The notes below the pieces were generated by a model, which did no database searches, was not told where the DNA came from, and saw only the letters and a list, made by a program, of their open reading frames with translations. Shown here in pieces: positions 1 to 22,705 of a stretch of 52,191 nt of DNA. The stretch spans positions 1-52,191 of the forward strand of contig DXJO01000044.1 of assembly GCA_019057475.1 (NCBI GenBank), in the 5' to 3' direction. The position numbers and the translations under genes are program-made. The first letter of the stretch is position 1. Every line of letters starts with the position of its first letter. The DNA comes from Candidatus Thorarchaeota archaeon (GTDB lineage: Archaea > Asgardarchaeota > Thorarchaeia > Thorarchaeales > Thorarchaeaceae).

Positions 1-187
1 GTGGACGAGCTTGGCGATTGTTTCGGGGTTCCGCATGAGATTGGCATTGGACGTGTATTCGGACGGATTGTGAATGAGAAGGTTAAGATCATACATAGGC
101 ATGCCAACACGAGTGTACAGTATGCGCTCCTTCTCAGGTCCCAGTTCCGCGAAACGCAGATACATGGGGCATTAAACAAACGAGATA

Positions 188-775: not shown

Positions 776-809
776 GGCGGCCCTGAATAGCTAGGAATTG
801 CAGAAGAAG

Positions 810-830
810 TGGTAGTGGGTGGTCGATTCG
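810..830 (-). repeat. tRNA-Met(i) 3'-end remnant (att-like copy 1)
   Basis: Reverse complement CGAATCGACCACCCACTACCA: part of the T-loop, the 3' T-stem strand, the acceptor 3' strand and CCA; 20/21 identical to the copy at 3117. Confidence 0.75.
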
Positions 831-899
831 TAGGGCTCCATCAAGTAGAGTCAGTTCAATTCACTGCGTAGTGCCCATTCTGGCCTCTTAGAGAAGAAA

Positions 900-962
900 T
901 GGTCGCGGGTGAATGATTCGAATAACCACATTCAGGGTCATGAGCCCTGCAGGATGCCGGTT
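900..962 (-). pseudogene. Degenerate, 5'-truncated tRNA-Met (CAT), att-like copy 2
   Basis: Reverse complement reads ...CAGGG CTCATGA CCCTG AATGT GGTTA TTCGAAT CATTC ACCCGCG A CCA. The anticodon arm (CAT, GGG/CCC pairs typical of initiator tRNA) is intact, the T-stem is broken and the 5' acceptor strand is absent. Confidence 0.75.
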
Positions 963-985
963 CGTCAGTCTAACGGACAGAGGAG

Positions 986-2917
986 TCAGCTACCTCTTCT
1001 GCGTCTTCGCCTGAGCTGATCCAGTGCCACAAAGATGACCACAAATGAAACAGCAGCGACAAGCCTTAAGTCTATGATATTAGGCCAATAGATGAAACCG
1101 GGGTCGGTATACACCAAGAAGCCAATGTCGCGCCTGCCGTTAGCACCTTCGATGCTACTTGCTATGTATATCAGATTATTCTCGCCAGCCGCAATGAGCC
1201 AACGAAACCAGTATTCCGATTCGCTACAGAACTCTGACATACTCCGACTCCAGAGTTGTCTACCCGTTTCATCGTATCTTGCCAGTCTGTACAACTGGGA
1301 ATCCATTGGCGAGTATAGGACCATGTACAATGAATCGTCTGGGGCCACGCAACAAGTCTCAATCAGTAGAGGATCGCTGAAATCCTCGGTGTACACTATC
1401 TCCATGCTCTGATTCCACGTAACAGAACCTTCTGCGCTTATCCGGATAAGGCTGGAAGCACTGACCATGGGATAATTGAAGGTCGAATAGGCGGCATATA
1501 CATCTCCTTCAGTAGTTAACTGCATTCTGTCGAATTTGCCGGTGACATTCCAAAGCAAATTGCCGTCCCTATCACACTTTGTGATTGCCTGTCCAGTCTG
1601 AACATACACATCTCCATCATGCGTGACTCCTAAGCTTGTCCCAGCACCTAAGTACTTCCAGAATGTTGCATTCCACAAATGCGCTCCATCTTGGTCAAGT
1701 TTCATGAGGACAGGTGTGTAACGATAGGGTTCCAGCGATTCCACCACGCTGGCTATCACGTAGATTTCCCCATCCGGTCCTACTGCAACATCACGCCCCA
1801 GGCTACCGTTCGGGAAGTCCCATCTATGAGTCCAGGCATGAGTTCCATTTGTCTTGTACTTCGCAAGAAGCGTGTTGTAAATTGGATAGGGGACTGGGTC
1901 ATAGGGTCCGAGCCAATCTGACGCCACAACATAGATGAAATCACCGTAGAGATCCAGACTGGGCCAGTATGAGCTCTCGTTGAAAGACGCCCACCAGACG
2001 ACTTCGCTGTTGGACCCCCATTTCACGAGGCAGGGCGTGTGGTTTTCAAAAGGATATCCGCCAAGCGACATAATTGCACCATAGACTGAGCCTTCTGAGT
2101 CGACATGTAGGTCAGACCACAACTCACTGCCCTCATGGTCCCAAAATCCTTGGGCAATTGAGCTAATCTCCTCCACCGGAGTGTGTTCTCCAACTAATGC
2201 CAGGGCACTTATTCTTTGAAGACTCATTGTCACAGAGCCGTTGCAGTATCGCCATGGCTCTGTGCCATTGTACAGCCTGTGAAATGACTCGCTTGGAGAG
2301 AGCCCGACCACGAGAGCGAGGGAATAGGCACCAAGTGGTGTTTCGGCGGTCTGTGTTTCCCACACTTCATCTATCCTGTTCTCTAATAGGTCCACACTCG
2401 CCGAATTCATACCATTCAATGTAGGGAGCGTGGTGTCCACGGAAACCCACCGTCCCATTGAAGTGATCATCCTGACAAATGGCTGGAAGTAGATCGAACC
2501 AGCTAGCTCAAATTCATAGTCGATGGATATTTTCACACGAAGCGGAGGGCAATCACGCTCCCATACGAACGGCTTTCTACAGACTATGAACTCGTTACAC
2601 TCTGGTGTTTCATTATATCTGTAATCTGTTGGTATTGGGTAGTCCAGTCGTGTACCCGCGGTGTGATTCCAAGTCATGCTCAAGTCGCCGTCAACACCGT
2701 CAGACTCGTAATCAAATGAGAACTCCCCAGAGTCACCTGCAATGATTACCTCTGGCATATCAGATAGCTCTGGGTCAGACAGGAGCTCCCACGAGGTGTA
2801 GTCTGAGGGTCTAGCGGGCTGAAGCGTGTTCTCAGTAGCAGAAACTGGGGCACTGACCAACAATCCAACAGATAGTATTAGGAGGAGGACATAGGACCCT
2901 TTCCTTCTAGCACTCAT
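986..2917 (-). CDS. Secreted, C-terminally anchored beta-propeller surface protein (SBBP/PQQ-like repeats)
   Basis: Signal peptide, repeated LxKxDxxGxxxW motifs (LVKWGSNSEVVW, LAKYKTNGTHAW, LMKLDQDGAHLW, LARYDETGRQLW), and a C-terminal TM helix followed by RRRRRR. Confidence 0.75.
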   Translation of the reverse strand: MSARRKGSYVLLLILSVGLLVSAPVSATENTLQPARPSDYTSWELLSDPELSDMPEVIIAGDSGEFSFDYESDGVDGDLSMTWNHTAGTRLDYPIPTDYRYNETPECNEFIVCRKPFVWERDCPPLRVKISIDYEFELAGSIYFQPFVRMITSMGRWVSVDTTLPTLNGMNSASVDLLENRIDEVWETQTAETPLGAYSLALVVGLSPSESFHRLYNGTEPWRYCNGSVTMSLQRISALALVGEHTPVEEISSIAQGFWDHEGSELWSDLHVDSEGSVYGAIMSLGGYPFENHTPCLVKWGSNSEVVWWASFNESSYWPSLDLYGDFIYVVASDWLGPYDPVPYPIYNTLLAKYKTNGTHAWTHRWDFPNGSLGRDVAVGPDGEIYVIASVVESLEPYRYTPVLMKLDQDGAHLWNATFWKYLGAGTSLGVTHDGDVYVQTGQAITKCDRDGNLLWNVTGKFDRMQLTTEGDVYAAYSTFNYPMVSASSLIRISAEGSVTWNQSMEIVYTEDFSDPLLIETCCVAPDDSLYMVLYSPMDSQLYRLARYDETGRQLWSRSMSEFCSESEYWFRWLIAAGENNLIYIASSIEGANGRRDIGFLVYTDPGFIYWPNIIDLRLVAAVSFVVIFVALDQLRRRRRRGS

Positions 2918-3116
2918 ACCTCATCGCACACCATAGACCCTGTTCACTGTGACCCACCCTCATCTGGCTGCAGATAAGAGAATTCGATTTCCGTCTGCAT
3001 GTGGCATTATTGCAGGATGAAGATATGAATCATACCTAAAGAAGACCTTGGACTCTCTCGTGGGGACCATTGATCACCAGAACGATTACCAACACTAGGA
3101 TTCGAATGCGAAGAAA

Positions 3117-3138
3117 TGGTAGCGGGTGGTCGATTCGA
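3117..3138 (-). repeat. tRNA-Met(i) 3'-end remnant (att-like copy 3), probable left boundary of the integrated element
   Basis: Reverse complement TCGAATCGACCACCCGCTACCA matches the archaeal initiator tRNA 3' end (CCCGCT-A-CCA). All three copies share the flank GAAGAA(A/G)TGGT. Confidence 0.8.
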
Positions 3139-3204
3139 GAGAAATCAAGGCTCTAGGCACCTCATCTTCATGTTTAAGCAAAAGACATAAGGAATCTTAT
3201 AGTT

Positions 3205-3304
3205 GGGCGGCGTTCTGTCGAACTGGAGTCAGGGTGCTCCTTGATTTGGAGTTGGAGCGCTCTCGGAAGAAAGGGAAGTGAGTGTTCAAACACTCGCGCC
3301 ACCC
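3205..3304 (+). ncRNA. Putative tRNA-like cloverleaf RNA (non-canonical)
   Basis: Outer stem GGGCGGC/GCCACCC enclosing four arms, with D-loop-like AACTGGA and T-loop-like TTCAAA. Folded by hand only. Confidence 0.3.
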
Positions 3305-3316
3305 CTTGCGAAACCC

Positions 3317-3619
3317 CTATTCTGATTCACAGAGATGGTGGTTACTCATACAGACAGTATGTAAAACTAACAGGCACTCTAGCAGTTTTACAACAACACT
3401 CGTGTAAAACTCTCCTGACGCTGTTAGGTTGAGTTTTATTGAGAAGTAAATCGGTTCTGGCCACTCTTCTTTACAGAAGAGGTCTGAAATCTCCCAGATG
3501 TAGTAGAATGAGCCATCGGATCGTCTAGTCACTATATATGGCCTCCCGAAACCCTCTATGGCAGTTGTTGATGGCCGTACTCCCTCAGAAAAGTTGAGGG
3601 ATAAGAGAGCGCAATCCAA
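3317..3619 (-). CDS. Hypothetical protein (possibly a fragment)
   Basis: ORF with protein-like composition, followed on the minus strand by a hairpin and TTCCCTTTCTT. Confidence 0.35.
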   Translation of the reverse strand: MDCALLSLNFSEGVRPSTTAIEGFGRPYIVTRRSDGSFYYIWEISDLFCKEEWPEPIYFSIKLNLTASGEFYTSVVVKLLECLLVLHTVCMSNHHLCESE

Positions 3620-3634
3620 AAGGACGGACCTACT

Positions 3635-3793
3635 ATGAAACTAGTTGAGGTATCTGACCTGTTCTCGCAGAGGCGACTTGCGTTCCAAGAGAGAATTAAG
3701 ATGTGGCGAGTCATGTTTCAAGAGCGAGTCAACGTGTGGCAAGTCAGGTTATTCCAACGACAACTCGGGAAAATCATCAGGAGGACTCGTTAA
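3635..3793 (+). CDS. Small hypothetical protein (52 aa) with internal FQERxxxW repeat
   Basis: Not in the ORF track: MKLVEVSDLFSQRRLAFQERIKMWRVMFQERVNVWQVRLFQRQLGKIIRRTR. Its stop overlaps the next ATG (TAATG). Confidence 0.45.
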   Translation: MKLVEVSDLFSQRRLAFQERIKMWRVMFQERVNVWQVRLFQRQLGKIIRRTR

Positions 3794-4346
3794 TGTCTCG
3801 TGAATCGAACTTAAGTCACCTGACTCTGCTTAAGTCACGACACGAATCATTGAAATTACGTGAAAACGTGTCCAAGGACAACCTATCAAGAATTTGCACG
3901 AGAACGACTCGAGTGCAACTCGTGTCACTCAAGAACCACAAGTCGGGTCAAACGAGTATAGTTCTCGTATTGGCCATCTTGCAGACGTGCTTTTGCCTGT
4001 GTTTGCTTCAAGTGGGGCACTGAACTCGCTAAACTCACAACAACATGACGCTTCCCTCCCATCTGAACACAGCATGACATCACAACCGCCGATGAGTCAA
4101 AATCCCCAAGGTTCACGACAAAGGCAGAGGCTCATCGGCACCATTTTTAGATCACTGTTCGGACAGCAACAAGGAATCGCAGAACGACAACCTGTCCAAG
4201 GAACAAAGCAGGATGTGTGAGAGCGGCTTGGGCAACGAGAGGTTGCTGAATTACCTATTGACCTGCAGGACGCTCAGGCAAAACGTGATGAACGATTTCG
4301 CAGGATGCAGCGCATGGGAGTCAACATAGGGGATGACCGATTATGA
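3793..4346 (+). pseudogene. Degraded hypothetical gene(s)
   Basis: ATG at 3793 with an apparent frame change. The 3894 frame continues past TGA 4218 with protein-like sequence (ERLGQREVAELPIDLQDAQAKRDERFRRM) to TGA 4344-4346, which overlaps the next ATG. Confidence 0.35.
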
Positions 4347-4591
4347 CTAAGAAACTCTCGGCGTACAATAAACACGTCCAGAAAGAAATGCTCAAGGGCA
4401 GGTCAATGTCCTAGGCAGCTGCGAGTTGGAACAAGGGAACCTCAAAGCCCCGAAAGAGATCCAAACGCAAGCCGACCACGCGAAGGAGAACGACCAGAAG
4501 GCAGACAGCCAAGCAAGGGCCGCGTCTGTTTCCTCTTTTGGATGGACTCAGAACACGAATTCAAAACAGGATCCGAATCATTAGGAGATGA
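4343..4591 (+). pseudogene. Small, very basic protein with an HMG/YABBY-like motif, interrupted by in-frame TAG
   Basis: MTKKLSAYNKHVQKEMLKGRSMS*AAASWNKGTSKPRKRSKRKPTTRRRTTRR...; TAG at 4412-4414; ATGA overlaps with both neighbouring ORFs. Confidence 0.55.
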
Positions 4592-4926
4592 TTAAGACAA
4601 TGACAGTCCAAGTAAAAGGACGGAACTGTCCAGGGTCTGACAGAGAAAGAGCAGAACGAGATCGAGCGCGGAACATAAGGACACGATATCACGATAGACA
4701 CAACGTGCCACCGGATCCCAGAGGACCACGGACTTTCACAAGGCACCTGACACGTCCGGTGTCATCCATGCCTTCGGTCATATCTAGTGGATCGCCAACA
4801 GGACCGACCAAAGGAATGCACCCATTGGCGAGGAGAAACCCTGCAAAATACAGCCGCAAAATGTCAATTTCTGATGTTGTCCCTCATTCTCCTTATCCCA
4901 GACAAGATATCATCTAAAGACATCAT

Positions 4927-5724
4927 CTAACCCCCCCGTTCATTGCTCTCTTGGGAGAATCCCTTTGATTTCACCCCTTTCTTGGGGGAAGCCTCGGGGG
5001 GTAGCCCCCTCTCTTGAGCCTTAGTCTTGGGACGCCCCTTTGTTCTTGGGTCAGATCTTGGGTTGGATATTGGGATATTTGGGTTCGACCTTGAGATGCT
5101 AGGGTCGGACTTGGGTTTAATCTTGGGTTCGACTTTCATCTTGGGACGGTCCTTAATACTTGGGTCAGGTCTTGGATTTGACCTTGGAAAACTTGGGTCG
5201 GATCTTGGGTTCGACCTTGGAATACTTGGGTTGGTCTTGGGACTCTTGGATTGGGTCTTGGGTCCGACCTTTTTCTTGGGACTCTCCTTAATATCCTTAA
5301 CTTTGGGTTCGAGCTTGGGTTGAACTTGAGATACTTGGGTTGGATCTTGGGTTGAACTTGGGATACTTGAGTCGGATCTTGGGTTCGACCTTAAGAGTGA
5401 TGGAAGTGGTCTATCAATCATTACATCGAGTCTTCGAAGTGTCCTTCGTGCCCTCGCTGTGATTCTATATCCTTTGACCCTTTTCCGGGGGTTCACAATA
5501 TCTGGCACTGGTTCTACAAGTTCCGCGTGGAAAAGATCCCCAAGTCCGCCGTCGAAACGCAGAGTGGATGGGGAAAACCCACAGATGGTGGCAATGTCTT
5601 CAAGGGTCATATAGGGTTCACCACTCATAGCCAATGCTGTGAAAGCACGACTGGAAACCCCTTTCTTCAATACTTTGCCAATATCAGCAAGTCGGATCAC
5701 TGAACGATCCTTAGATTCCGTCAT
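4927..5724 (-). CDS. Winged-HTH DNA-binding protein with repetitive P/S/K/R-rich C-terminus (candidate initiator or regulator)
   Basis: MTLEDIATICGFSPSTLR...LGDLFHAELVE...GYRITARAR is a wHTH pattern, followed by PRSNPRSDPS repeats. Divergent from the helicase operon. Confidence 0.65.
   Translation of the reverse strand: MTESKDRSVIRLADIGKVLKKGVSSRAFTALAMSGEPYMTLEDIATICGFSPSTLRFDGGLGDLFHAELVEPVPDIVNPRKRVKGYRITARARRTLRRLDVMIDRPLPSLLRSNPRSDSSIPSSTQDPTQVSQVQPKLEPKVKDIKESPKKKVGPKTQSKSPKTNPSIPRSNPRSDPSFPRSNPRPDPSIKDRPKMKVEPKIKPKSDPSISRSNPNIPISNPRSDPRTKGRPKTKAQERGLPPEASPKKGVKSKGFSQESNERGG
5025..5395. repeat. Imperfect direct repeats (ACTTGGGTCGGATCTTGGGTTCGACCTT) inside the wHTH gene
   Basis: Units at 5158, 5191 and 5365, with partial units at 5045, 5079 and 5224; dense CTTGGG hexamers. 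Confidence 0.8.
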
Positions 5725-5882
5725 AGATCTTCCCTACAAATAGGTAGATTCCTAAAGTTGATAAGATTCCGACGCTAACGGGGTTAAGACGCCTTCTTTC
5801 AGTGAAAGAAGATATGAAAACATATGAAAACATATATTGGGGCTTTGATTGGTCCGATATGTTGTGCCTTGGAAATAAGAAA

Positions 5883-6101
5883 ATGAAAGAAGTCAAAAGA
5901 CCCCCCAGCGTGCTTCTGAGCAGATTCATTGGACCAGAAGATGAGATACTACAATTCTTGAGGGAGATTGAGGAACGCTTTAACATTAAGTTGTATCCAG
6001 ACACACCAAGGATTGATAGACAATATCCTGATTGCGTCAGGATCTACGTTAAGATACCACTTGACAGGCCGCCCGTCAAGAAAGAGGTGTCTGAAGAATG
6101 A
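5883..6101 (+). CDS. Small hypothetical protein, first gene of the replication operon
   Basis: Probable ATG at 5883 (MKEVKRPP). Its stop overlaps the helicase start (ATGA), with an SD-like GAGGTG ahead of the helicase. Confidence 0.6.
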   Translation: MKEVKRPPSVLLSRFIGPEDEILQFLREIEERFNIKLYPDTPRIDRQYPDCVRIYVKIPLDRPPVKKEVSEE

Positions 6102-7630
6102 GTGAGGACATCTTTGTGTCTGATGAAGATGTTGTGAAATCCACCTCTAGCTCTTCCTTAACTAAACGGGGTAGTAGGATTAAGGATTCACCTACCTACA
6201 CCCTAGCCCACATAATTATGAAGAACCGAAGATTCTACACCGATGGTGGGGCTGAATTGTGGATATTCGATGAAACTAAGGGGTTGTGGACACCAAAAGC
6301 AAGGCCTTTCATTCGTAAACAAGCCGTGGCGATGTTGGCTGAAAAGTGGACCAAACACAAGGAGAATGAAATCATAGGGTTCATTCATAGCTCGCGTTTC
6401 GATCCCGATGTGGAACTAGGAAAGCTAAGACATAGGATTGTGTTGTTAAACGGAACCTACGACCTAGATGAGATGGTGTTCCACAATGAGTTCTTTCCTG
6501 AAGAATATCAGACCATACAAATACCAGTCGACTACGACCCCAAGGCCAAATGTCCAAAATTCAAGAAGTTCATGAAAGAGATAATTCCAGACGAATGGGA
6601 TAGATTGTGTATAATGGAATGGTTTGGATATCATCTGTACAAGTCATACAAGTTTGCGATCTTTCTCATTTGTCTGGGAGATGGAGCGAACGGAAAGTCC
6701 ACAATGTTGGCGGTATTGGAGAGGTTCATAGGGAAAGAGAATAGCAGCTCCTGTACGCTGAAACAAATCCTTCAGGACAAGTTCAAGACTGCTCAACTCT
6801 ACATGAAGCTAGGAAACGTTTGTGGGGATGTTTCAAAGACCGGCCTAGCAAAGACTGGCACCATCAAACAATTGACAGGCGGGGATAAATTGACCGCCGA
6901 ACACAAACATCTTCCAGAGTTCAGTTTCTACAACTTTGGTAAGTTGACATTCGCTGCCAATGAACTACCATACAGCTATGACAAGACTTCGGCCTTTCAT
7001 CGAAGGGTAAGGATAATTGAGTTTCTTCGAGTATTCCTAGCTGATGACCCCAACACTAGGGACCAAGATGAATTGATAGATGAGATGACTACCCCCAAAG
7101 AGTTGAGTGGGATCTTTAACGCCGCTCTTGAAGGATGGGAACGACTTAGATCGAAAAGACAATTGACCGGAACAAAGCCAATTGAGGACAATACACTCTA
7201 TTGGACATTGAAGAGTGATCCTGCTGCTTATTTTTGTATGCAATACCTAGTGCATGATACTAAATACCCCGATATCAAAAAGGCGTGGCTCTATGATGTC
7301 TATATCAAATGGAGTCACACCATAGACAAGACCCCTATTAGTAGCAGTTGGCTCTCACGCAAGTTGAAGATAATGGTGCCATTCGCAGAGGACGCGTCCA
7401 GTTCAGGAGGAGCTAGGTATTGGAAAGGATTTCGAGTGGATGAAGAGAAGATGAGGGCAGATCTAAGGGAGTTAGAGGAATCAGGCACCATAACGATAGA
7501 AACGACATATTTTGATCTATTATTCTCATTTATCGAAGGAAAAAAAGAAAATAATATATCAGAAAATGGCGTTCTTGGCGTTTCTAAGAAATTGGATAAA
7601 GTCTTTGATGATGAGGGGGTTGAGTCATGA
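6098..7630 (+). CDS. Superfamily 3 (D5/P4-type) DNA helicase without an N-terminal primase domain
   Basis: D5_N-like IVLLNGTYDL...YQTIQIPVDYDPKAKCPKF, Walker A GDGANGKST, IKQLTGGD, motif C FAANELP, arginine finger AFHRRVRIIEF, and a C-terminal wHTH-like region. Confidence 0.9.
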   Translation: MSEDIFVSDEDVVKSTSSSSLTKRGSRIKDSPTYTLAHIIMKNRRFYTDGGAELWIFDETKGLWTPKARPFIRKQAVAMLAEKWTKHKENEIIGFIHSSRFDPDVELGKLRHRIVLLNGTYDLDEMVFHNEFFPEEYQTIQIPVDYDPKAKCPKFKKFMKEIIPDEWDRLCIMEWFGYHLYKSYKFAIFLICLGDGANGKSTMLAVLERFIGKENSSSCTLKQILQDKFKTAQLYMKLGNVCGDVSKTGLAKTGTIKQLTGGDKLTAEHKHLPEFSFYNFGKLTFAANELPYSYDKTSAFHRRVRIIEFLRVFLADDPNTRDQDELIDEMTTPKELSGIFNAALEGWERLRSKRQLTGTKPIEDNTLYWTLKSDPAAYFCMQYLVHDTKYPDIKKAWLYDVYIKWSHTIDKTPISSSWLSRKLKIMVPFAEDASSSGGARYWKGFRVDEEKMRADLRELEESGTITIETTYFDLLFSFIEGKKENNISENGVLGVSKKLDKVFDDEGVES

Positions 7631-7851
7631 GCATCAGCCATTATCGAGGATTCTCAACTGAAATCCTGCTCAGGTGGAAAAGGGATCTAGAATATGAGGC
7701 ATCGAACTGGAATCGCAGAATCAAGGAACAACATACAAGAAAATTCGATCCCATATTTCAAACTGTGACTGAGTACAAGAACAGAATCCGTGATTGCCGA
7801 AGGTCCATCAAACAGATTGACAAGGTTCTTGCCGAGAGGGGGATGGTGTGA
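7627..7851 (+). CDS. Small basic helical hypothetical protein
   Basis: Translationally coupled between the helicase and the Topo VI-A-like gene. Confidence 0.6.
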   Translation: MSISHYRGFSTEILLRWKRDLEYEASNWNRRIKEQHTRKFDPIFQTVTEYKNRIRDCRRSIKQIDKVLAERGMV

Positions 7852-9675
7852 ATGGGTAAGCGAACCAAATTCAATGATGTCACGAAGAGGCTACTGGCTG
7901 AGCGTTTGGCGCATGTCAAGAAAGGATTCTTGCCCCCGTTCTCCGATATGAGGCACTTCTTCTATGAGTGTAGAAATGTGTTGCTCCGAGAGAACCCCGA
8001 TATGTTGGGGCCTGATGGCGGTGGTAAGGAACCATATAGCAATTGGTTGGGCATGGTAGCTAGATGGTGTGACAAATACACCGAGGACTTTGGCATTTCT
8101 GAAGGGCTTTGGTGGCGTGTCAGAGAGAGATTGAACCTTTTTGCTAAGGCTAGGGCAACCTGTGAAGGGGTTGAAGAGAAGTTTCTAGTGGACAAGAAGA
8201 CCAGACACAAAATAGCTAAGGGTTGTAGTTTCATTCTAGTCTGTGAGAAAGAAACCGTGACTAACGAATTAATGGCGAAGTTGCAGAATGAAGATTATTT
8301 ACTCAATGTTGTAGCGACTGGTGGAAAGACTACATCTGATGTCCAAGAGGCTGTATTGTCTATAGCTGAAGACCTAGGTGAGGCTCAAAATTTCTATGTT
8401 CTGGTTTTGCATGACTATGACCTAGATGGTGTGGGGATATATTACAAACTGAAGGAGCGATACAAAAATGCCATTGATGTTGGGGTCGGCCCCTCTTTTA
8501 TCAAGTTCTTGAAGAAGAGAAAAAGCATAGATCTTAGATTGGTCGAGGAACAGAAGCTGAATATGATTAATAGAGATTGGGTCAAGGAACATATGTTGTC
8601 GCACGATGAATACTCATTGTCTGATTTTGAGTATCTTTATGGTGAACCATACCAAGTTATTGTTAAAGGAAAGGAGAAGACTTACCACAAAGGCCGAAGA
8701 ATCGAGATCGATGCCATTCACGTACAATATGGCATAAAGCCGTTCATTGATTACATTCTGAAGCAAATCAAAAAGCGTTGCACGGTCTGGGATCTGACGA
8801 GGATTGGAGTGAACAAAGACGGTTATGTTTTTCAACTTCACAATCCTGATTGCAGATTCGAGGAGAGAATGGATGGACATGAAGATCCCGACTACATCAC
8901 ACCCATAGAGAAGATAGAAGAATGTGAGCTGCCGTTTAACTACGCCTATGCAGTGAGGAGTGTATGGAGGTATTTGGATCGGATATTAAAGCCCCCCTTT
9001 GATAGTGCTAAAGAGAAGCTTCAAGACCTAGTTGATTCAGTGAGTTCGGTGGTTCAAGACGATGTCATACATGAGAATTATGAAGAGTTTCAATCTGTGT
9101 TGGACGAGTATAAGGAGCTGGAGAATCAATCAGAATCCATCATAAAGCAGGCAACAGATCTTGAAGGAGAAACCAAGGGCGATCTTGTGCAATTGAAGGA
9201 AGAGATTGAGAAGGATATCTCAGCCCTGAAGGATGTGGTGGATACAGACATTTCAACCCTGCGGAATGACTTCGAGAACGATTTCGACATGGATTGGATT
9301 GAATCTCATCGTGAAGAACACCAAGACATTATTGACCAGATCGAAAACTATGAAGGAGATGTCCGAAAAGGGAAAAAGGATTTGATAGGTCGAGTTGAGA
9401 AGATACAAGAGAAGATGGAAAACGGGTCAAAAAACAATCCCCGATATGATGAGTTCCATACCAAGTTAGAAGAACTAGAGCAGAAACACTCAGAAGAACA
9501 AAAACAGGTCGATGCTAAGGTTGATGAGGGGATAGAACAAATGGACTCCAAGTGGGAGGACTTCGACTCCAAAGAAGAACTGATTGAAGACTTTCAGGGG
9601 CTAGATGAGAAACGCATTCTGGAGTTGATAGTTGAGGTGCTACAAGATCGATTGAAGGAGTTGGTTGAAGAATGA
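7852..9675 (+). CDS. Spo11/topoisomerase VI subunit A-like protein fused to an acidic coiled coil
   Basis: Colinear family motifs: MRHFFY (catalytic Tyr position), RERLNLFAK, FILVCEKE (Toprim Glu), VVATGG, LHDYDLDGVGI (DxD), DVGVGPS and RIEIDAI. The C-terminal ~250 aa is E/D/K-rich and heptad-like. Confidence 0.8.
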   Translation: MGKRTKFNDVTKRLLAERLAHVKKGFLPPFSDMRHFFYECRNVLLRENPDMLGPDGGGKEPYSNWLGMVARWCDKYTEDFGISEGLWWRVRERLNLFAKARATCEGVEEKFLVDKKTRHKIAKGCSFILVCEKETVTNELMAKLQNEDYLLNVVATGGKTTSDVQEAVLSIAEDLGEAQNFYVLVLHDYDLDGVGIYYKLKERYKNAIDVGVGPSFIKFLKKRKSIDLRLVEEQKLNMINRDWVKEHMLSHDEYSLSDFEYLYGEPYQVIVKGKEKTYHKGRRIEIDAIHVQYGIKPFIDYILKQIKKRCTVWDLTRIGVNKDGYVFQLHNPDCRFEERMDGHEDPDYITPIEKIEECELPFNYAYAVRSVWRYLDRILKPPFDSAKEKLQDLVDSVSSVVQDDVIHENYEEFQSVLDEYKELENQSESIIKQATDLEGETKGDLVQLKEEIEKDISALKDVVDTDISTLRNDFENDFDMDWIESHREEHQDIIDQIENYEGDVRKGKKDLIGRVEKIQEKMENGSKNNPRYDEFHTKLEELEQKHSEEQKQVDAKVDEGIEQMDSKWEDFDSKEELIEDFQGLDEKRILELIVEVLQDRLKELVEE

Positions 9676-9854
9676 GTTACTACAGCAGCCGAAAGCTGAC
9701 TGAAGAAGAGAAGGCCGAACAGAGCAAAAGGTTTGACGCCATCATAGATTCCTTCATCGATGAGACAACATCTTCTGAAGAGGTCAAACCGAAGATCCCT
9801 GTCAAGAAGCCATCACTGAAGAAACAAAAGAGTCTGGATGATATCTTCTCATGA
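9672..9854 (+). CDS. 60-aa microprotein with C-terminal PIP box
   Basis: Ends KQKSLDDIFS (Q-x-x-L-x-x-I-F); ATGA overlap with the upstream gene; abuts the PCNA-like gene. Confidence 0.7.
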   Translation: MSYYSSRKLTEEEKAEQSKRFDAIIDSFIDETTSSEEVKPKIPVKKPSLKKQKSLDDIFS

Positions 9855-10607
9855 CTAAAAACTGCCGAGACTGCTGAGCATGTAGGTCAACATGTAGTCC
9901 TTTGAACGCTGTGATAGTATCATTGCATCCTTTCTTAGTGTCAACCAGACTTCGGTTTTGGGTCCGAATTGGTTTATGATTTTGTCGAAGAGATATTTTT
10001 CAAAAAGCATCTCTGTGTCACCCAGCATCTCACGTAGCACCTTAGTCCTGCTGGGAGTGATAACCTTTCTGAACTTTCCTACATCCTCGGCGAATACAGA
10101 CAGTTGTTTACCATCGCAGGTAAATAACAGACGGTCCACTTTCGGCAAGCCAATCAGGATGTCTGCTTTGACCAATATCTGAACCACGGGGTCTAGATCC
10201 TTCGGCAACAATCCCATAGTCATGTGAGCTACGAAGGGGAAGGGGATCTCACAGAGTTCAGCCTCAACAAACGGCTCTTCGTAGTCTTGCCATTTGCCCT
10301 GCAAATAGATCTTGTCCTTCTTGGTTCTTATCTCGACCTTCTCTTCTTTTTTGAAGCTATCCTTCATGATGTCAAGTAATGACTTTGAGAACGGGACCTG
10401 TTCCCCCTCCTTAGCCTCAAACTCCAAAAAGTATTCGGACGAGAAGACGGCATTGACAGCAAGAGCCTCAAGGGTAATGTCTTTGAAGACTACTCCTTTG
10501 GCACTGAACACGCCAACGTGAGCGTCTAGCAGCGCAGGTTTCCCGTGGCACACTAACACGTTCACCAGCAAGCGCTGAAGTCGCTCTGGTTCAACAATTG
10601 CTTTCAT
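9855..10607 (-). CDS. Divergent PCNA-like DNA sliding clamp
   Basis: 250 aa with a two-domain clamp pattern: MKAIV..L..LL, VFSAKGVVFK, FSSEYFLEFE, FEKYLFDKII...VWLTL...MIL...LTYMLS. Confidence 0.7.
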   Translation of the reverse strand: MKAIVEPERLQRLLVNVLVCHGKPALLDAHVGVFSAKGVVFKDITLEALAVNAVFSSEYFLEFEAKEGEQVPFSKSLLDIMKDSFKKEEKVEIRTKKDKIYLQGKWQDYEEPFVEAELCEIPFPFVAHMTMGLLPKDLDPVVQILVKADILIGLPKVDRLLFTCDGKQLSVFAEDVGKFRKVITPSRTKVLREMLGDTEMLFEKYLFDKIINQFGPKTEVWLTLRKDAMILSQRSKDYMLTYMLSSLGSF

Positions 10608-11392
10608 GATTTGTCCTTCTTTGTTTCTTTAGCTTCGATATCTCTAACGACTATGTGAGATTTGTTCAATATTGGGCTCTGAATTGGTCTGATGGTGACT
10701 TTCACTCCTCGATACCAGTCCTCGGGAATGGTCGTTGTTATTGTCCATTCGCCATTCTCATTCTTCACAGGATCGAGAACCTTTGACTCACTCAATCTGG
10801 GAGGACTGAAAGATTTGACGGGACTCCCGCCGAATTCCCACTCCCTCAATTCAAGAAAGGCTCTCTCGACAGAGATATCCCCCCTCCTCGCCCTCAGCCT
10901 CAGATCTTCGGAGCCATTCTCTTCAATACGTTTCACTCTTCGCAGGGTTGTGTGACTGATTCCCACTCTCTTAGCAGCTTTCACATCGGCCCGACCCTTG
11001 ACCTTCGTAAAGTCCTTTACGGAGGTCTTGTCCATCAGATCGGTTCTGATTCCCTTTCTCTTCTTGGCGATCTTGCTCTCAACTTCCAGAAACTTCAGAG
11101 CTACTAGCCCCTTGGAATAGGTATTCAGCTGCCGTCGCAGAACATTGTCCTTGATGGCATACTCAATCATCTTCGACCTGTCTTTGAACTTCTTGACAAC
11201 ATAGGGCGGCGCAATTCCCAGCTCAAGTGCTATCTTGTACCTCTGATGACCGCAGACGATTGTCCCATCCTTAGCCACAATCAAGGGATCGCGGATGCCG
11301 TTCTTCTTGATGTCCCTCCTCAGTTCCTCATAGGTCCATTCCTCTAGACCCTCGAACAGAGCAGCTATCTTCTTGTCAATCCTAAGCTTCAT
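10604..11392 (-). CDS. ParB/Srx N-terminal domain protein with HTH
   Basis: LRRDIKKNGIRDPLIV...IVCGHQRY (ParB boxes), DNVLRRQL, and HTH AAKRVGISHTTLRRVK. Confidence 0.85.
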   Translation of the reverse strand: MKLRIDKKIAALFEGLEEWTYEELRRDIKKNGIRDPLIVAKDGTIVCGHQRYKIALELGIAPPYVVKKFKDRSKMIEYAIKDNVLRRQLNTYSKGLVALKFLEVESKIAKKRKGIRTDLMDKTSVKDFTKVKGRADVKAAKRVGISHTTLRRVKRIEENGSEDLRLRARRGDISVERAFLELREWEFGGSPVKSFSPPRLSESKVLDPVKNENGEWTITTTIPEDWYRGVKVTIRPIQSPILNKSHIVVRDIEAKETKKDKS

Positions 11393-11495
11393 TCGGCATT
11401 ACTCATAGTATCGTTATTTCGGAGTAATATTAGATTGTTGATACAGGGGTTCACGGCCCAGTGAATCCGCTTAGCGCTAAATTATATGGCTCTAA

Positions 11496-11584
11496 GTATA
11501 GATAGTAACGTACTTACTAAAGTAACTAAGTGTAGGGTTATATTGCCCTTAGGTATAGATGTTGTAACGTACTTACTAAAGTAA
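11496..11584. promoter_or_regulatory. Two identical 21-bp direct repeats GTAACGTACTTACTAAAGTAA (operator/parS-like)
   Basis: Copies at 11505-11525 and 11564-11584, each preceded by GTATAGAT and containing the palindrome TTACT-AA-AGTAA. They lie between the divergent ParB-like and RHH genes. Confidence 0.75.
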
Positions 11585-11608
11585 GGCAAAAAAGGAAAGA
11601 AGAAAGTA

Positions 11609-11746
11609 GTGAACTTGAAACGATTAAATATTGTGTTCGAAGACGATGATTTTGATATCCTCCGACGGGCCAAGGGCGAAGATACTTGGGCAGAGGCCCT
11701 AGTCAAGTGGGCCAAAATTGTACTGAAGGAAGCGAAGTCCAAATGA
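11609..11746 (+). CDS. Ribbon-helix-helix (CopG/antitoxin-like) small regulator, 45 aa
   Basis: Not in the ORF track: MNLKRLNIVFEDDDFDILRRAKGEDTWAEALVKWAKIVLKEAKSK. Beta-strand plus two-helix pattern; ATGA overlap with the next ORF. Confidence 0.7.
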   Translation: MNLKRLNIVFEDDDFDILRRAKGEDTWAEALVKWAKIVLKEAKSK

Positions 11747-11961
11747 TTATGGTCGATGTAAGTGAGATTCAATACCATGAGAGTATCATCAGAATACACC
11801 TCACTGAGGAACAAGCTATCATGTTGGTAGCAGCGATCGAATTGAACATGAAGAAGGTTAAGGGAGATTGCAAAGGTATCGAACTGATGACGATTCTCAA
11901 ACTTGTTGAAAATAAGATCCGCGTGGGTCTATGGAAAGAGGGGGATGAGTCCAGTGATTGA
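11743..11961 (+). CDS. Small hypothetical protein (72 aa)
   Basis: ATG at 11743 is coupled to the RHH stop codon. Confidence 0.55.
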   Translation: MIMVDVSEIQYHESIIRIHLTEEQAIMLVAAIELNMKKVKGDCKGIELMTILKLVENKIRVGLWKEGDESSD

Positions 11962-12144
11962 AGATGAAGCTGATGGCCTCCTAGATCTTCGACGAACATC
12001 TTGGACCCTACGAAGTGGAATGACAATGAGAAGAAGAGGGGTTGGTGATGGTCCCCCCCTTTACGACTATACATTTTTCCGAATTCTTCATTTGTCCCAC
12101 ATATTCGCGGGCCCGAGTTCGTTCCCTGCAATAGGTGAACAGAA

Positions 12145-13158
12145 ATGAACAGAAAGAAACTGAGGATGGCTTTACTATTCGGGATCCTTTTGTTGGCGGT
12201 TTTTGTTATGCCGGTAGAAGCAACGACTTTTGAGTTGGCCGAGGATGGCCACTGGCATTTTGAGTTTAATGTAAATGCATATGGATATCAGTATGTTTAT
12301 GGCACTAAAGTGGAGGGTCATGGTGCATATGGAACCTTCACTGTGCATTATGACGATATCACATTCTTCATTGTTGACCAAGAGAACTTTGACAAATACA
12401 AAAACGGCCAAAGCTACAGTAGATATTGTGTGCTCTTAGATGTTGTTGATGGCGACTACAAGTTCCGTTTTCCTTATGCTGATACTTGGTATAGTGTATT
12501 CTGTAATAAGGATAGCATCTGGCCAAAAGATATTACTTTTGACTTGTATCATGACTCAACTCCACCCGATGTCACGTTGAATCTCGATACTGGCGCAACC
12601 TATAGCGGCATCAAAGAGATTAGGGCGACTGCTAGTGATGTCAGTTTTTCTGTGTGGAAGCTTAGTCTGCAATACTATCTCAACGGCTGGCGAGCAGTAA
12701 AGACAGAATACAATACTGAAAGCATCAGCTACAATTGGGACACAAAGGATTGGAGCAACGGCGACTTAAGATGGAGGGTAGTGGCTGAGGATACTGTCAA
12801 CAATGAGGCAATCAAAGAAGTTATGGTGACTGTCTATAATTATGTGGCACCGACTACAACAGAAGTAACAACTACAGATGGAATTACGACTACAGACGGA
12901 CAGGCGACTACTAATGGGCCATCCACATATACTGACCCGACTGCGCTGTTGATGTTGCTTGGGATTGTGGGCACTGTTATCATTGGTATAGTAGCTGTGT
13001 CACGTCGGAGTAAGGAAATCTCTCCAGAAATGCCTAAACCAGATTTAACCTTAAAGGAGAAAGAGATTACAACTAAAGTTTTGATTATATGTCCCTTCTG
13101 CGGGGCAAAGACAGAACAGGGGCTCACCAAGTGCCAAAACTGCGGTGCTGACCTCTAA
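12145..13158 (+). CDS. Type I membrane protein: GOLD/p24-like domain, Ig-like domain, Thr-rich stalk, TM, cytoplasmic zinc ribbon
   Basis: Signal peptide; DITFFIVD...YKFRFP...WYSVFCNKDSIWPKDITFDL; DSTPPDV...YNWDT...NG...VVAED; TM helix; CPFCG...CQNCG. Confidence 0.7.
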   Translation: MNRKKLRMALLFGILLLAVFVMPVEATTFELAEDGHWHFEFNVNAYGYQYVYGTKVEGHGAYGTFTVHYDDITFFIVDQENFDKYKNGQSYSRYCVLLDVVDGDYKFRFPYADTWYSVFCNKDSIWPKDITFDLYHDSTPPDVTLNLDTGATYSGIKEIRATASDVSFSVWKLSLQYYLNGWRAVKTEYNTESISYNWDTKDWSNGDLRWRVVAEDTVNNEAIKEVMVTVYNYVAPTTTEVTTTDGITTTDGQATTNGPSTYTDPTALLMLLGIVGTVIIGIVAVSRRSKEISPEMPKPDLTLKEKEITTKVLIICPFCGAKTEQGLTKCQNCGADL

Positions 13159-13189
13159 CACGATCCTAAAGAAATAGGAGAGAATAGAA

Positions 13190-14752
13190 ATGGAACAAAA
13201 ACATCTAAACATCTTTTTGGTGGTACTCTTGGTGGGTATCATAGGAGTCAGTAGCGTTGCTGTTGTTCAGCAGATGAGCTACCAGAGCCTAGATTCCGAA
13301 TACCAAGATCTACTCACAGACTATGAAACACTGTCCTCTGACTGGAACCAAACTTCAGATGACTTGAATGACCTACAATCAGAGTTCGAGACGATGCAAA
13401 CATCTTATCTTACGTTGATAGATGATTATGCTAGTCTTAGTGAGATACATCTGATTGTGCTGTCGAACAACACGAATCTTCAGCAGTCTCTTGATGACCT
13501 TCAGGTGCTGTATGACCAATTGCTTGAAGACTTTGCTTTGTTGAATGCGTCTTTTGTGGAGCTCGAACAGAACCATGCCGACCTTCAAGCAGACTATGCT
13601 CAGCTTCAGTCGGATTACGATGAGCTTCAGGTGAACTATAATCAGCTGTTGCTTGACTACAACGACCTCATGGCACAGTATCAGGTTCTTCAGGACTCGT
13701 ACAATGCTCTGGTGTTGGCTTATGATACTCTGGAGCTACAGTATGATGCCTTAGTACTTGACTACGATGCACTCTTGAGTGACTACAACGCGCTTGCCAA
13801 TGACTTTTCAGCATTACAGAACGACTACGATGCGCTTGAGCTAGCTTATAACACACTCTCAACTTGGATACGGCAGCAGATTCTACCTGTTCAACACATG
13901 GTATTCGCTGAGGCAGTTCGACAATATTACCTTCAGGACTACCTTGACCAGTCTTCAGACACGAAGGGTTGGTATAGACAATACACAAGGTTCTGTCGCG
14001 ACTTGGTGCTTCATGCTTCAGGTCAATGGGACCCATTTCAGACCGTTTCAGAGGCGTTTAGTGATGCCCTGCTTTATGGTTCAGACACGATGAGTCTGAC
14101 ATATTGGGCCATGTATAGCATGGCCATGTACGATGGATCTTCTTGGCAGACGTTCCCATATCGTTGGGGATGGAGCTTTAGTCCTGAGAACTGGGGCATT
14201 GATATCGTCGTTCAAGACTGTATTGACAACATCGACTATGAATATGACACCGACATCACCTATGGACAGTCGGGTGCCACATGGGACTATCCAAAACATC
14301 CTGTCGAAACGGCCTTCAGGACAATGGGGGATTGTGAGGACCAAGCAATATTGACAGCAGCATATCTTGAGAGAACTAGTTTCTACAATGCTACTGACAA
14401 CTACAGGTTTGAAACAGCAATGGCAATATTCCACGACCCTGCCCATCCTACGTTGGGGTCTTTCTATCATGCAACCCTTTTGGTCCATATTGAGGACACT
14501 GCCGACTTCTACAGTAGGTATCCATTAGGTGTTTTATGGAACCTAGGAGGAGGCATCGACCCTTACAGTGGATTTACTTGGTGCTGGTTAGACCCGACAT
14601 GGAATGTTCCCTTTGGGGCTGTTCCGTCTTGGTTGACAGCCTACAGGATTCATGGTGGGCTTGGTTATGACGTGATGTCAATAGCCATCAATGACTACAA
14701 CGGGGGCATTGCTCAGACAGGGAATGGACCCCTTGGGGCATATGTGCCCTAG
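13190..14752 (+). CDS. Membrane-anchored coiled-coil stalk with transglutaminase-like (Cys-His-Asp) domain
   Basis: N-terminal TM, ~190 aa of LxxxY heptads, then YPKHPVET...GDCEDQAIL, YHA and WLDPT. Confidence 0.8.
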   Translation: MEQKHLNIFLVVLLVGIIGVSSVAVVQQMSYQSLDSEYQDLLTDYETLSSDWNQTSDDLNDLQSEFETMQTSYLTLIDDYASLSEIHLIVLSNNTNLQQSLDDLQVLYDQLLEDFALLNASFVELEQNHADLQADYAQLQSDYDELQVNYNQLLLDYNDLMAQYQVLQDSYNALVLAYDTLELQYDALVLDYDALLSDYNALANDFSALQNDYDALELAYNTLSTWIRQQILPVQHMVFAEAVRQYYLQDYLDQSSDTKGWYRQYTRFCRDLVLHASGQWDPFQTVSEAFSDALLYGSDTMSLTYWAMYSMAMYDGSSWQTFPYRWGWSFSPENWGIDIVVQDCIDNIDYEYDTDITYGQSGATWDYPKHPVETAFRTMGDCEDQAILTAAYLERTSFYNATDNYRFETAMAIFHDPAHPTLGSFYHATLLVHIEDTADFYSRYPLGVLWNLGGGIDPYSGFTWCWLDPTWNVPFGAVPSWLTAYRIHGGLGYDVMSIAINDYNGGIAQTGNGPLGAYVP

Positions 14753-14761
14753 GGATCCTAC

Positions 14762-14789
14762 GACATGGGAGCCATCCGGCTCCTGTGTC
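14762..14789 (+). terminator. 12-bp hairpin after the transglutaminase-like gene
   Basis: GACATGGGAGCC-ATCC-GGCTCCTGTGTC; no clear U-tract. Confidence 0.4.
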
Positions 14790-14800
14790 AACTATAAGAG

Positions 14801-15223
14801 GTGAATATCATGTCAATGATAGTACCCAAAAGCGCTGTATGTCCTTACTGTGGAAATACCCTACATGAAATCCGAATACCGTTTGGTCTGACAGAGCAGA
14901 AGTGTGGATATACTAAATGTCAAGAAAAGTGGCATGAAGGGGAATTTAGAGTTCTATGCTTCACAGTCGTGAGTCGTGACAAAAGGGGGTTGGGGAGAAA
15001 CAGGGGGGTCATGTGGAACATAAGATACAAGACAAATGGGGATGAAGGGGCCATTGGATTCCACACATACAGAAGAGGCATTCTATTGAAACGCAAGGAC
15101 ATATTGCTTCTCTCATTCAAGAAGCGGTCCAAGGGATTCTTCTGGAAGAAATGGACAGGCGAATGGGATAAAAGACCAAGCAAATTGTTCAACATCAAAA
15201 TAAATACCGTGTGGAATGTCTAG
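14801..15223 (+). CDS. Basic zinc-ribbon-containing hypothetical protein
   Basis: CPYCG...CGYTKC; SD-like GAGGTGA upstream of the ATG near 14810. Confidence 0.6.
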   Translation: MNIMSMIVPKSAVCPYCGNTLHEIRIPFGLTEQKCGYTKCQEKWHEGEFRVLCFTVVSRDKRGLGRNRGVMWNIRYKTNGDEGAIGFHTYRRGILLKRKDILLLSFKKRSKGFFWKKWTGEWDKRPSKLFNIKINTVWNV

Positions 15224-15232
15224 TGCTGTTAG

Positions 15233-15505
15233 GTGAATGAAATGGCTGAAATTGGAACGCCTACGAAATCCACACCACCGGATATGAACAAGAGAGAACG
15301 CAGGTCCACAGCCTGCGCCCTATGTGTCTGGATCGTCATACTTGCCTACTGTTGGGTATTTTCCACAACGGAAGTTCCATTAGAGAACATGAGTATCGGC
15401 GAATTGACCACTCGATTGATAATGTTGCTCATGTCGTTGTTTGTAATTTTCTTAGCAATCTACAAGATAGGGAGGGCGCTATTGAAACTCTACAAGCACA
15501 GGTGA
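15233..15505 (+). CDS. Small two-TM membrane protein
   Basis: Two hydrophobic helices and a basic C-terminus. Confidence 0.6.
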   Translation: MNEMAEIGTPTKSTPPDMNKRERRSTACALCVWIVILAYCWVFSTTEVPLENMSIGELTTRLIMLLMSLFVIFLAIYKIGRALLKLYKHR

Positions 15506-15573
15506 TTGAGAATGATAGAAGAGAGAAAATCTCGTGCAAAATCTCTGGTCAATGTTGATCAAATTGTCTTCAA

Positions 15574-16587
15574 TTAGGTCATCCTTTCTTTTCTTGTTTT
15601 CGTTGCCTTTTTCTTGGCCTTCTTTGGCTTTTTCTTGAATTTGGAAATCTCTTGCGAAACAGATTCTACATATTGCTTACGATCAAAAATCAGGTTGCCC
15701 TCGACAGCTGGACGTCTAAAGTTTAGGTCTGCAAGAGCACCGACCTTTACTTTCTCCGGGATTATTGAAGTGACTTTCCTTTCAGGTTTGATTCCACCAA
15801 TAACAAAAGGATGGTCCACATTCACATAGTCAGTAAAGAATTCACCTGATACAAGTCTGCGTACCAATTCATAGACATCAGATGGAGAAGCGCCGCTTGC
15901 GAGTTCAGTTTTCCTATAACGACGCTTAAGACCTTCGATATTGCGCTCTCCTCTCTTTATAGCCATCAGGAGTTTTTGTTGAATTTGAAGGCCCTTTTTC
16001 ACTTCATCAGGTATTGCAGAACCAAAGAAGCGTTCAACTCCAATTCTAACGTTTACATTGACACTGTCAATGTTAAGTTCACTCCAAGCACGCTCTAAAA
16101 TACTGACATCCTTTAGTGCTGAATGAATCCAATATATGTCGCTTCCTTCCTTCCGCTTTGGATTGATTGCAGCTTTTACCGCGACTAGTCTGTTCAGGAA
16201 ATCCTGACCAACGTGACCTTGGACAGTAACCATGAACCTCTCACTTTTTGGAAATTCTCCTAAATTACAAACCCATTTCATACCTTCTTGATCGAAGTCT
16301 ACTTTTACTAACCCTCCAGTATCAAGATCGATAACGTCGTATATCTTGAATCCATACATCACGGGCACTTCGACCTTTCCATGTGTTTTCCTGAGGATTC
16401 CTGAAGAAACTTCAAGCAGGTATTTCATTTCACTACTTAGAGTCAAGTAATTGATTCTAAAACTCTTGATTTCAGGTTTATAGGGTTTGAAATGCTTTGT
16501 AATGGCTTCAATTTTTTCTGCAATCGTTATTCCTGTTTTCATACCTGTCAATGCTTTGGTTAGTTGGTCCAATGGATTTCCACTCAA
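15574..16587 (-). CDS. Hypothetical protein with Lys-rich tail
   Basis: 337-aa ORF coupled to the upstream gene; no family recognised. Confidence 0.7.
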   Translation of the reverse strand: MSGNPLDQLTKALTGMKTGITIAEKIEAITKHFKPYKPEIKSFRINYLTLSSEMKYLLEVSSGILRKTHGKVEVPVMYGFKIYDVIDLDTGGLVKVDFDQEGMKWVCNLGEFPKSERFMVTVQGHVGQDFLNRLVAVKAAINPKRKEGSDIYWIHSALKDVSILERAWSELNIDSVNVNVRIGVERFFGSAIPDEVKKGLQIQQKLLMAIKRGERNIEGLKRRYRKTELASGASPSDVYELVRRLVSGEFFTDYVNVDHPFVIGGIKPERKVTSIIPEKVKVGALADLNFRRPAVEGNLIFDRKQYVESVSQEISKFKKKPKKAKKKATKTRKERMT

Positions 16588-17624: not shown

Positions 17625-17725
17625 TCGTCAAACCACGATGAAAATGGTTACAATGTACGGTCCTTTTCAACCCTCTTAAACTTCTCGTAGAATGGATAAT
17701 GATGTCTTAGAGGAATTTATTAGGG

Positions 17726-17971: not shown

Positions 17972-17984
17972 GAGGTACGGTTTC

Positions 17985-18212: not shown

Positions 18213-18316
18213 GCACTTCACTCATCCATAATCCTTCTACTCACTGAACGCATCTCGAATTGCATCAATGATTACAAGTAGTTGTTCCTCGGGATCTAGG
18301 CCCTCTCAATCTTTTT

Positions 18317-20200: not shown

Positions 20201-20209
20201 GCAGCATTC

Positions 20210-21340: not shown

Positions 21341-21422
21341 CTATTTCACTCACAGAACTAGTTCTCGGGCGCTCCACTCTTTGCTAGTGCTAAAAAGGTT
21401 GTGCGAATGCATCGCGATTAGA

Positions 21423-22700: not shown

Positions 22701-22705
22701 TATCT

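Follow-up and report, generated by a model that had tools for sequence, protein, structure and literature searches.

We analysed a contig of 52,191 nucleotides (C24, hereafter the window, at its full length) from the 3.3-Mb assembly of a Candidatus Thorarchaeota archaeon and concentrated on positions 4927-11746, where a compact set of putative replication and maintenance genes lies inside an integrative element. Host proteins from the neighbourhood fall into 90%-identity clusters with proteins labelled Candidatus Thorarchaeota, and the DNA seems to come from a marine sediment metagenome. These genes encode a winged helix-turn-helix (wHTH) protein, an SF3 helicase, a stand-alone Topo VI-A-like protein (mini-A), a small open reading frame (ORF) that ends in a PCNA-interacting peptide (PIP)-like motif, a PCNA-fold clamp, a ParB-like protein and a ribbon-helix-helix (RHH) regulator (Table 1). 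An original prediction, made from the letters alone, had described two convergent operons bounded by the wHTH and RHH genes. Every ORF that it named is present, open and in the described layout. The plus-strand operon runs from the small ORF before the helicase to the 60-aa ORF with overlapping or abutting stop and start codons and converges on the minus-strand parB-clamp pair, whose genes overlap by ATGA (translational coupling). The two regulators were correctly placed but do not delimit the unit, since the integrase, the attachment (att) site and a left arm on another contig lie outside them; the integrase, the 13-bp att repeat and the CTTGGG repeats had not been listed. A Pfam search gave no match for the RHH-like 45-aa protein or the small ORF upstream of the helicase.

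Table 1. Features of the element in the window (positions in the window; aa, amino acids)
Feature	Position	Strand	Remark
Candidate origin	4887-5390	+	67-bp conserved stretch, then 20 CTTGGG repeats mostly inside the wHTH gene
wHTH gene (probable initiator)	4927-5724	-	MarR-like HTH lead from Atlas, 0.92
Small ORF	5802/5883-6101	+	Likely start 5883; coupled to helicase; homologue in L059
SF3 helicase, primase-less D5/P4-type, 510 aa	6098-7630	+	
74-aa helical ORF	7627-7851	+	Weak PHROG regulator match, 0.002
Stand-alone Topo VI-A/Spo11-like (mini-A-like) protein, 607 aa	7852-9675	+	
60-aa ORF	9672-9854	+	C-terminal PIP-like QKSLDDIF
PCNA-fold sliding clamp, 250 aa	9855-10607	-	Virus-associated family
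Orphan ParB-like protein	10604-11392	-	ParB_N with GxxR, then HTH
Two exact 21-bp direct repeats	11505-11584		At 11505 and 11564; parB and RHH diverge on either side
RHH-like regulator, 45 aa	11609-11746	+	Recognised by eye from the sequence
Cargo	12145-18212		Membrane/secreted proteins and ORFs without assigned function; several with paralogues on other low-GC contigs
Tyrosine integrase	18317-19444	-	Pfam 4e-7, PHROG 5e-15; catalytic motifs intact
Right att repeat, TATTAAATGATAG, 13 bp	19514-19526	+	Only other genome copy at C40:9258-9270, minus strand

The region belongs to an integrative element with a tyrosine integrase, a direct repeat at both ends and an empty site in relatives, as the original prediction had supposed. 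The assembly has exactly two copies of the 13-mer, one at each junction (C24 19514 and C40 9258), and the integrase start codon lies 70 bp inside the repeat. Identity to three same-genus genomes starts at window 19514-19516, and in two of the three, the DNA upstream of the junction matches contig C40 down to position 9258. The same-genus genomes G391 and G392 join both flanks across a single copy of the repeat. Because of the C40 match in the relatives and the 13-mer at both junctions, we place the element on two contigs, as C40:9257-1, an unassembled gap and window 1-19513, with a length of at least 28.8 kb. The element side of the window (1-19513) has a G+C content of 45%, the remainder one of 49%. 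Searches for tRNA genes and Rfam families found none in the region, and neither relaxase nor mating-pair genes were recognised in the assembled arms, the middle being unassembled. The integration site is just upstream of the first Rab-like GTPase gene of a conserved host cluster (19628-23272; two Rab-like GTPases with WD40 and HEAT-repeat genes), and contigs of several same-genus genomes stop nearby.

The left part of the region holds a candidate replicator. There are 20 copies of CTTGGG in about 430 bp, compared with 0.15 expected per 500 bp, commonly at a spacing of 9-12 nt, and the low-complexity C-terminal half of the wHTH protein is the translation of this array. An iteron origin inside the initiator gene is known from lambda O. 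By analogy, the wHTH gene and the array have the anatomy of such an origin, and we regard them as a candidate origin and the wHTH protein as its probable initiator. A CTTGGG cluster on contig C31 was considered as a second origin and rejected, being a protein repeat. The helicase contains D5_N (residues 50-163), DUF5906 and a weak Pox_D5 match, with intact Walker A, Walker B, motif C and Arg finger. It has no primase domain, as predicted, and about 30 residues precede the region common to its relatives. The absence of a primase is not rare in this group: about half of the nearest helicases are without one, 16 of 30 having <75 extra N-terminal residues (some may be cut by contig ends). No Prim-Pol was found in the whole assembly, and PriS occurs only on host contig C18; ParA (AAA_31) had no match on C24 or C40. 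The statement that the element has no polymerase, primase or ParA holds for the assembled 28.8 kb and does not reach into the gap between C40 and C24.

The same set of genes is present in a sister element (L059) from another genus of the family, which also shares a gene with the C40 arm. Its gene order is identical: wHTH (with repeats), small ORF, primase-less SF3 helicase, a homologue of ORF 17985-18212 and integrase. The homologue of the small ORF lies directly upstream of the helicase there as well (E 4e-16), and this ORF is possibly a loader or accessory factor of the helicase. L059 has 8 CTTGGG copies, and next to the array the 67-bp stretch shows 84% DNA identity although the reading frame is interrupted there. 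No mini-A, ParB or clamp is present in L059. The region is accordingly made of two layers, a core in common with L059 and an accessory set of mini-A, ParB and clamp. Upstream of its wHTH gene, L059 also carries a one-strand run of small ORFs (L059:218-5822) that could be virion genes of an undescribed virus; those tested gave no PHROG match.

Direct Pfam, PHROG and PDB sequence searches identified neither the Toprim protein nor the clamp, and both were recognised through folds and profiles. The AlphaFold model of the 607-aa protein (37 relatives, pLDDT 81.6) has its best match in Topo VI-A (1d3y, E 4e-7), ahead of Spo11 and JetD; the top Foldseek matches are 1d3y, 9o0g and 2zbk, and the fold is the 5Y-CAP plus Toprim arrangement of Topo VI-A. 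The catalytic core reaches to about residue 330 and holds R34, F37 and Y38 (RxxF/YY), E132, and D188, D190 and G193 (DxDxxG), of which Y38, E132, D188, D190 and G193 are invariant across the subfamily alignment. Beyond about residue 335, long helices make up a tail of ~270 aa, and most relatives (490-560 aa) also have a helical tail. No neighbouring ORF matched a Top6B/GHKL partner. To our knowledge, the function of the mini-A proteins and clamps of archaeal mobile elements has never been tested. Topo Mini-A has been described as a stand-alone protein of about 300 aa on mobile DNA with an xWELDAL signature (Takahashi et al., PMC7671362). The 607-aa protein shares with it the 5Y-CAP and Toprim domains, the RxxF/YY, E and DxDxxG motifs, the lack of a B subunit and the location on mobile DNA, whereas it is twice as long owing to its helical tail, and its T2BI box is RIEIDAI across the subfamily. 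We suggest that it works like a Mini-A but is not a strict member, because its length and the WELDAL signature do not conform.

The subfamily is rare, with strong matches in one of 400 Asgard genomes (that of the window) and in three of 401 Bathyarchaeia genomes. We compared the neighbourhoods of mini-A at 15 other loci, each at least about 5 kb long. The neighbours vary and include Cdc6 with a DUF3987-like protein, a PriL-like protein, a PriCT protein and ParB (L027). Pfam-confirmed integrases stand beside mini-A in four of the 15 loci, and a weak PriS match was seen at a locus without DNA. An SF3 helicase or clamp is near mini-A in a single case (L007/L019), which has both. Since the replicators beside it are so varied, mini-A appears to travel with small integrative elements whatever their replicator, and a helper role in DNA topology would fit better than that of a dedicated initiator. 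IMG/VR contains no relatives of mini-A, the clamp or the helicase, and GenBank phages and PLSDB contain none of the mini-A core. No Wadjet SMC, kleisin or KITE gene lies beside the Toprim gene. Elsewhere in the assembly, a defence-rich island on contig C51 (78698-80752, 93719-93988 and 107968-108459) contains another SF3 helicase that likewise lacks a primase, together with a remnant of mini-A (79% identity to P0019) and an integrase; a third SF3 helicase, with a stop codon, lies at C17:18284-19453.

The clamp model (pLDDT 95.6) has the full two-domain PCNA fold, with a TM score of about 0.78 to archaeal PCNAs over the whole chain, and the family profile, drawn from a family of at least 130 clusters, matches PCNA at 1e-9. 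The protein is distinct from the host PCNA encoded on C18. It is 74% identical in amino acids and 78% in nucleotides to the clamp of a phage-like contig (L001), and the nucleotide match is confined to the gene. The gene was probably acquired from a virus in recent times and inserted behind parB, to judge the direction from the context. Members of the clamp family immediately precede a weakly AEP-like primase gene in three contigs and follow a Sak4/AAA_24 ATPase gene in two. A conserved phage-like block (L001:8060-11766, L077:3230-6962 and L078:8050-11769) consists of a 300-aa ORF, the Sak4/AAA_24 ATPase, the PCNA-like clamp and the AEP-like primase; L001 additionally encodes a different stand-alone Topo VI-A-like protein.

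The ParB-like protein matches Pfam ParB_N at 1.4e-5, just under the cut-off, and PHROG ParB at 1.6e-17, with GxxR at residues 48-51 and an HTH; it has no counterpart in 85 other genomes of the family. As in ParABS systems, a ParB CTPase domain is followed by an HTH, whereas no ParA gene is adjacent here (C24, C40). The QKSLDDIF-type C-terminal motif of the 60-aa ORF ends 5 of the 2459 long ORFs of the genome (0.2%), one of which we take, by reading, to be FEN1-like; no homologue of the 60-aa ORF was found in the fetched loci. The 21-bp direct repeats, which could be an RHH operator or, equally, a parS-like site, are also found on contig C12, where they precede an RHH homologue. This part of C12 (557-1380) is a paralogous copy of the RHH/91-aa ORF region, operator-like repeats included, and suggests a family of related elements in this genome.

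The original prediction had proposed a search for the same gene combination elsewhere, and all five components do co-occur once more, in a Bathyarchaeia element represented by a metagenome-assembled genome (MAG) from peat and a metagenome contig (L007/L019). Besides an integrase and mini-A, it encodes a protein of 473 aa, a small HTH-like ORF and an SF3 helicase without primase. The 473-aa protein (L007:7617-9038, plus strand) is a ParB-HTH-HTH-PCNA fusion. Its first half is ParB-like with HTHs (ParB PHROG 2e-12), and its residues 226-464 match the clamp profile over nearly the full length with 35.9 bits, compared with at most 5.1 for shuffles; hhalign supports the fused clamp domain at 96%, E 4e-9. 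In a quick tree, the window clamp pairs with the phage-like clamp (99 support), and the fused clamp is a long separate branch far away. The ParBs of the two elements are not detectably orthologous (4 bits), the helicases (33%) and mini-A proteins (36%) are not nearest relatives, and the gene order differs. Because the ParBs are non-orthologous, the clamps distant and the gene orders different, the simplest reading is that L007 is an independent assembly of the same tool kit, one case that would point to a functional ParB-clamp link. The sequences suggest that the pair was recruited repeatedly, and the fusion suggests, by analogy, that ParB and clamp may work together. No second case of the fusion was found in 400 Bathyarchaeia genomes, and we found no report of a ParB-PCNA fusion architecture in the literature searched.

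The remainder of the element holds cargo and traces of rearrangement. Two coupled AT-rich ORFs of 337 and 346 aa near the integrase (15574-17624, minus strand) have no PHROG match and are possible defence cargo. An HMG-like basic gene at 4343-4591 (plus strand) is broken by TAG where the intact L059 homologue has Glu, which is most simply explained as a nonsense mutation. Three repeats resembling the 3' end of tRNA-Met (803-830, 890-922 and 3110-3137) bracket a gene for a beta-propeller surface protein. We considered these remnants (803-3137) as att sites and rejected them, as the integrase-side repeat differs and has a proven empty site. In contigs from other runs, either 777-3109 is missing or 3198 is linked back to 501, and contig C20 connects the positions that correspond to 166 and 3201. 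The segment therefore resembles a separate cassette, nested in the island, that can be excised. Small shares of the window in cold-seep runs were set aside as fragments of relatives, and a simple scan found no CRISPR array in the host assembly.

On balance, we think it probable that the region serves to replicate and maintain an integrative plasmid-like element, with a host-dependent core and an accessory layer of mini-A, ParB-clamp and PIP peptide. The model builds on what the comparisons establish: which genes are present and that their motifs are intact, where the att sites lie, the division into core and accessory genes, the relationship of the clamp to viral ones and the ParB-clamp fusion in another element. 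Excision, the origin, all the protein interactions and what mini-A, ParB and the peptide do are proposals. The integrase would insert and excise the element at the 13-bp AT-rich site. The wHTH protein would bind the CTTGGG repeats in its own gene and open the origin and, with the small upstream ORF, load the SF3 helicase for unwinding, after which the host primase and polymerase would copy the circle. The mini-A-like enzyme would cut and rejoin DNA without an ATPase subunit, most likely relaxing or unlinking the small circle. The orphan ParB may load at a site on the element and partner the PCNA-fold clamp, probably derived from an archaeal virus, which would be the element's own docking ring for host PIP-bearing replication proteins; together they might aid copying and inheritance without ParA, replacing ParA-driven partition. 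The PIP peptide may tune or compete for a clamp.

Several observations weigh against this model. Members of the clamp family usually lie beside an AAA/Sak4 ATPase and an AEP primase-like gene rather than beside ParB. The ParB-clamp fusion is known from one element only, whose MAG and metagenome copies come from the same peat site. An assembly gap occupies the middle of the Thorarchaeia element, and the nonsense codon in the HMG-like gene is a sign of decay near the replication genes. The depth in the source run is flat at about 39x over element and flank (contigs only), and no joint closing the element into a circle occurs in the contigs of four runs, which drop rare forms. The circular form or raised coverage for which the original prediction had proposed to look was therefore not seen, and the flat depth and lack of a closing joint indicate that the element is integrated in essentially all cells.

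The original prediction, a possibly undescribed replication module with its own clamp and break-forming enzyme that defines a new element family, can be taken to mean that the five genes constitute an indivisible replicon. In such a replicon, mini-A would make the initiating break (rolling-circle or break-primed), SF3 would extend, and clamp and ParB would be required. Mini-A and the helicase do share one coupled operon here, all parts recur in L007/L019, the sole one of the 15 mini-A loci with SF3 or clamp, and a nicking-initiator role of mini-A has been proposed for skuldviruses (10.1101/2021.07.29.453957). However, L059 holds the same core without mini-A, ParB and clamp, mini-A partners many replicators and is found with SF3 and clamp in only that one locus, the clamp is probably a recent import, and L007 differs in gene order, with a ParB that is not detectably orthologous and a helicase and mini-A that are not the nearest relatives. 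We do not uphold the indivisible unit and consider an obligatory five-part replicon of a new family unlikely. Mini-A, ParB and clamp could also be independent passengers of an ageing composite island with no part in replication. The recent, gene-sized clamp import, the opposed orientation of the parB-clamp and helicase operons, the RHH region and cargo common to other contigs, the mini-A remnant in the C51 defence island and the flat coverage are consistent with this reading. It is nevertheless somewhat unlikely, as the frames and catalytic motifs are all intact and the genes translationally coupled, the gene for the PIP-like peptide abuts the clamp gene, and a ParB-clamp fusion exists in a comparable element.

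Two further explanations concern viruses and conflict. Mini-A and PCNA are common in archaeal viruses, the clamp derives from a phage-type operon and the HMG-like basic gene has decayed, all of which would agree with a defective provirus, its structural genes either lost or hidden in the unassembled gap; this is very unlikely, given that no capsid, portal or terminase was found in the tested window ORFs or, by eye, in the C40 arm, and that IMG/VR and GenBank phages hold no relatives. A conflict module, in which the Topo VI-A-like protein would act as a JetD-like nuclease and, together with ParB and the clamp or PIP peptide, cut rival elements or hijack the host replisome instead of helping the element to replicate, is scarcely probable. 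JetD/MksG structures are among the fold matches, there is a weak DUF2399 match, and relatives lie near restriction-modification genes, but the match to Topo VI-A clearly outscores that to JetD, the subfamily keeps the catalytic tyrosine motif and no SMC or kleisin gene is adjacent.

Overlapping sets drawn from mini-A, PCNA, ParB and SF3 have already been published for Asgard elements. A 20.8-kb circular plasmid of Atabeyarchaeia carries RHH/CopG, a primase-helicase, a mini-topoisomerase VI, a tyrosine integrase, a ParB-like protein and membrane proteins, according to the available text of the description (Valentin-Alvarado et al. 2024, PMC11529989). Like our element, it has an Asgard host, an RHH protein, a helicase, a mini-topo VI, a tyrosine integrase, a ParB-like protein and membrane proteins; compared by description, that text gives a primase-helicase and mentions no PCNA, whereas here the helicase is primase-less and a clamp is coupled to ParB. 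Yucahu-i, also from Atabeyarchaeia (PMC11529989), has a tyrosine integrase, an 11-bp AT-rich att (13 bp here), an SF3 helicase proposed to be pSSVi-like and HTH proteins, as does our element; no mini-A, ParB or clamp was described in it, and its circular form was observed, unlike here. The Asgard elements 10H_0, 7H_42 and 8H_18 combine Topo mini-A with PCNA, and 7H_42-like elements add SF3 (Medvedeva et al., 10.1101/2021.07.29.453957). They share these genes with the window, but have a helicase-primase fusion (7H_42-like) or a Cdc6 initiator (10H_0), and no ParB-clamp coupling was reported. Aloposons differ in their giant genes and ParA-like ATPase. Nearly all components thus seem to be covered by published Asgard elements, and what appears to be new is the Bathyarchaeia element, in which an integrase, a mini-A of the same subfamily and a primase-less SF3 helicase accompany the ParB-PCNA fusion.

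Guo and Huang are said to have found in 2010 that the SF3 helicase of the Sulfolobus plasmid pSSVi interacts with the host primase, and we know of no mini-A, ParB or clamp in pSSVi. The interaction is also cited in the available text of PMC11529989. The helicase of the window is likewise a plasmid-type SF3 protein without a primase domain and may, by analogy, depend on the host primase, although host and element are different.

The findings add defined mobile elements to Thorarchaeia and document that a clamp was recently transferred between an integrative element and a phage-like genome. As the set is intact and compact, with a predicted origin, an initiator, an att site and a natural "minus" control in L059, the roles of mini-A, the orphan ParB and the private clamp can be tested in vitro. 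We tentatively raise the further possibility that archaeal integrative elements lacking primase and polymerase repeatedly recruited ParB and a virus-type PCNA ring, as a pair of coupled genes here and as a single fused protein in Bathyarchaeia. ParB would position the clamp at a specific site of the element's DNA, perhaps without the host clamp loader, so as to capture or ride the host replisome, and the long-tailed mini-A would handle the topology of the circle. If true, this would be a ParA-free, clamp-based mode of replication and inheritance of an episome in the archaeal relatives of eukaryotes.

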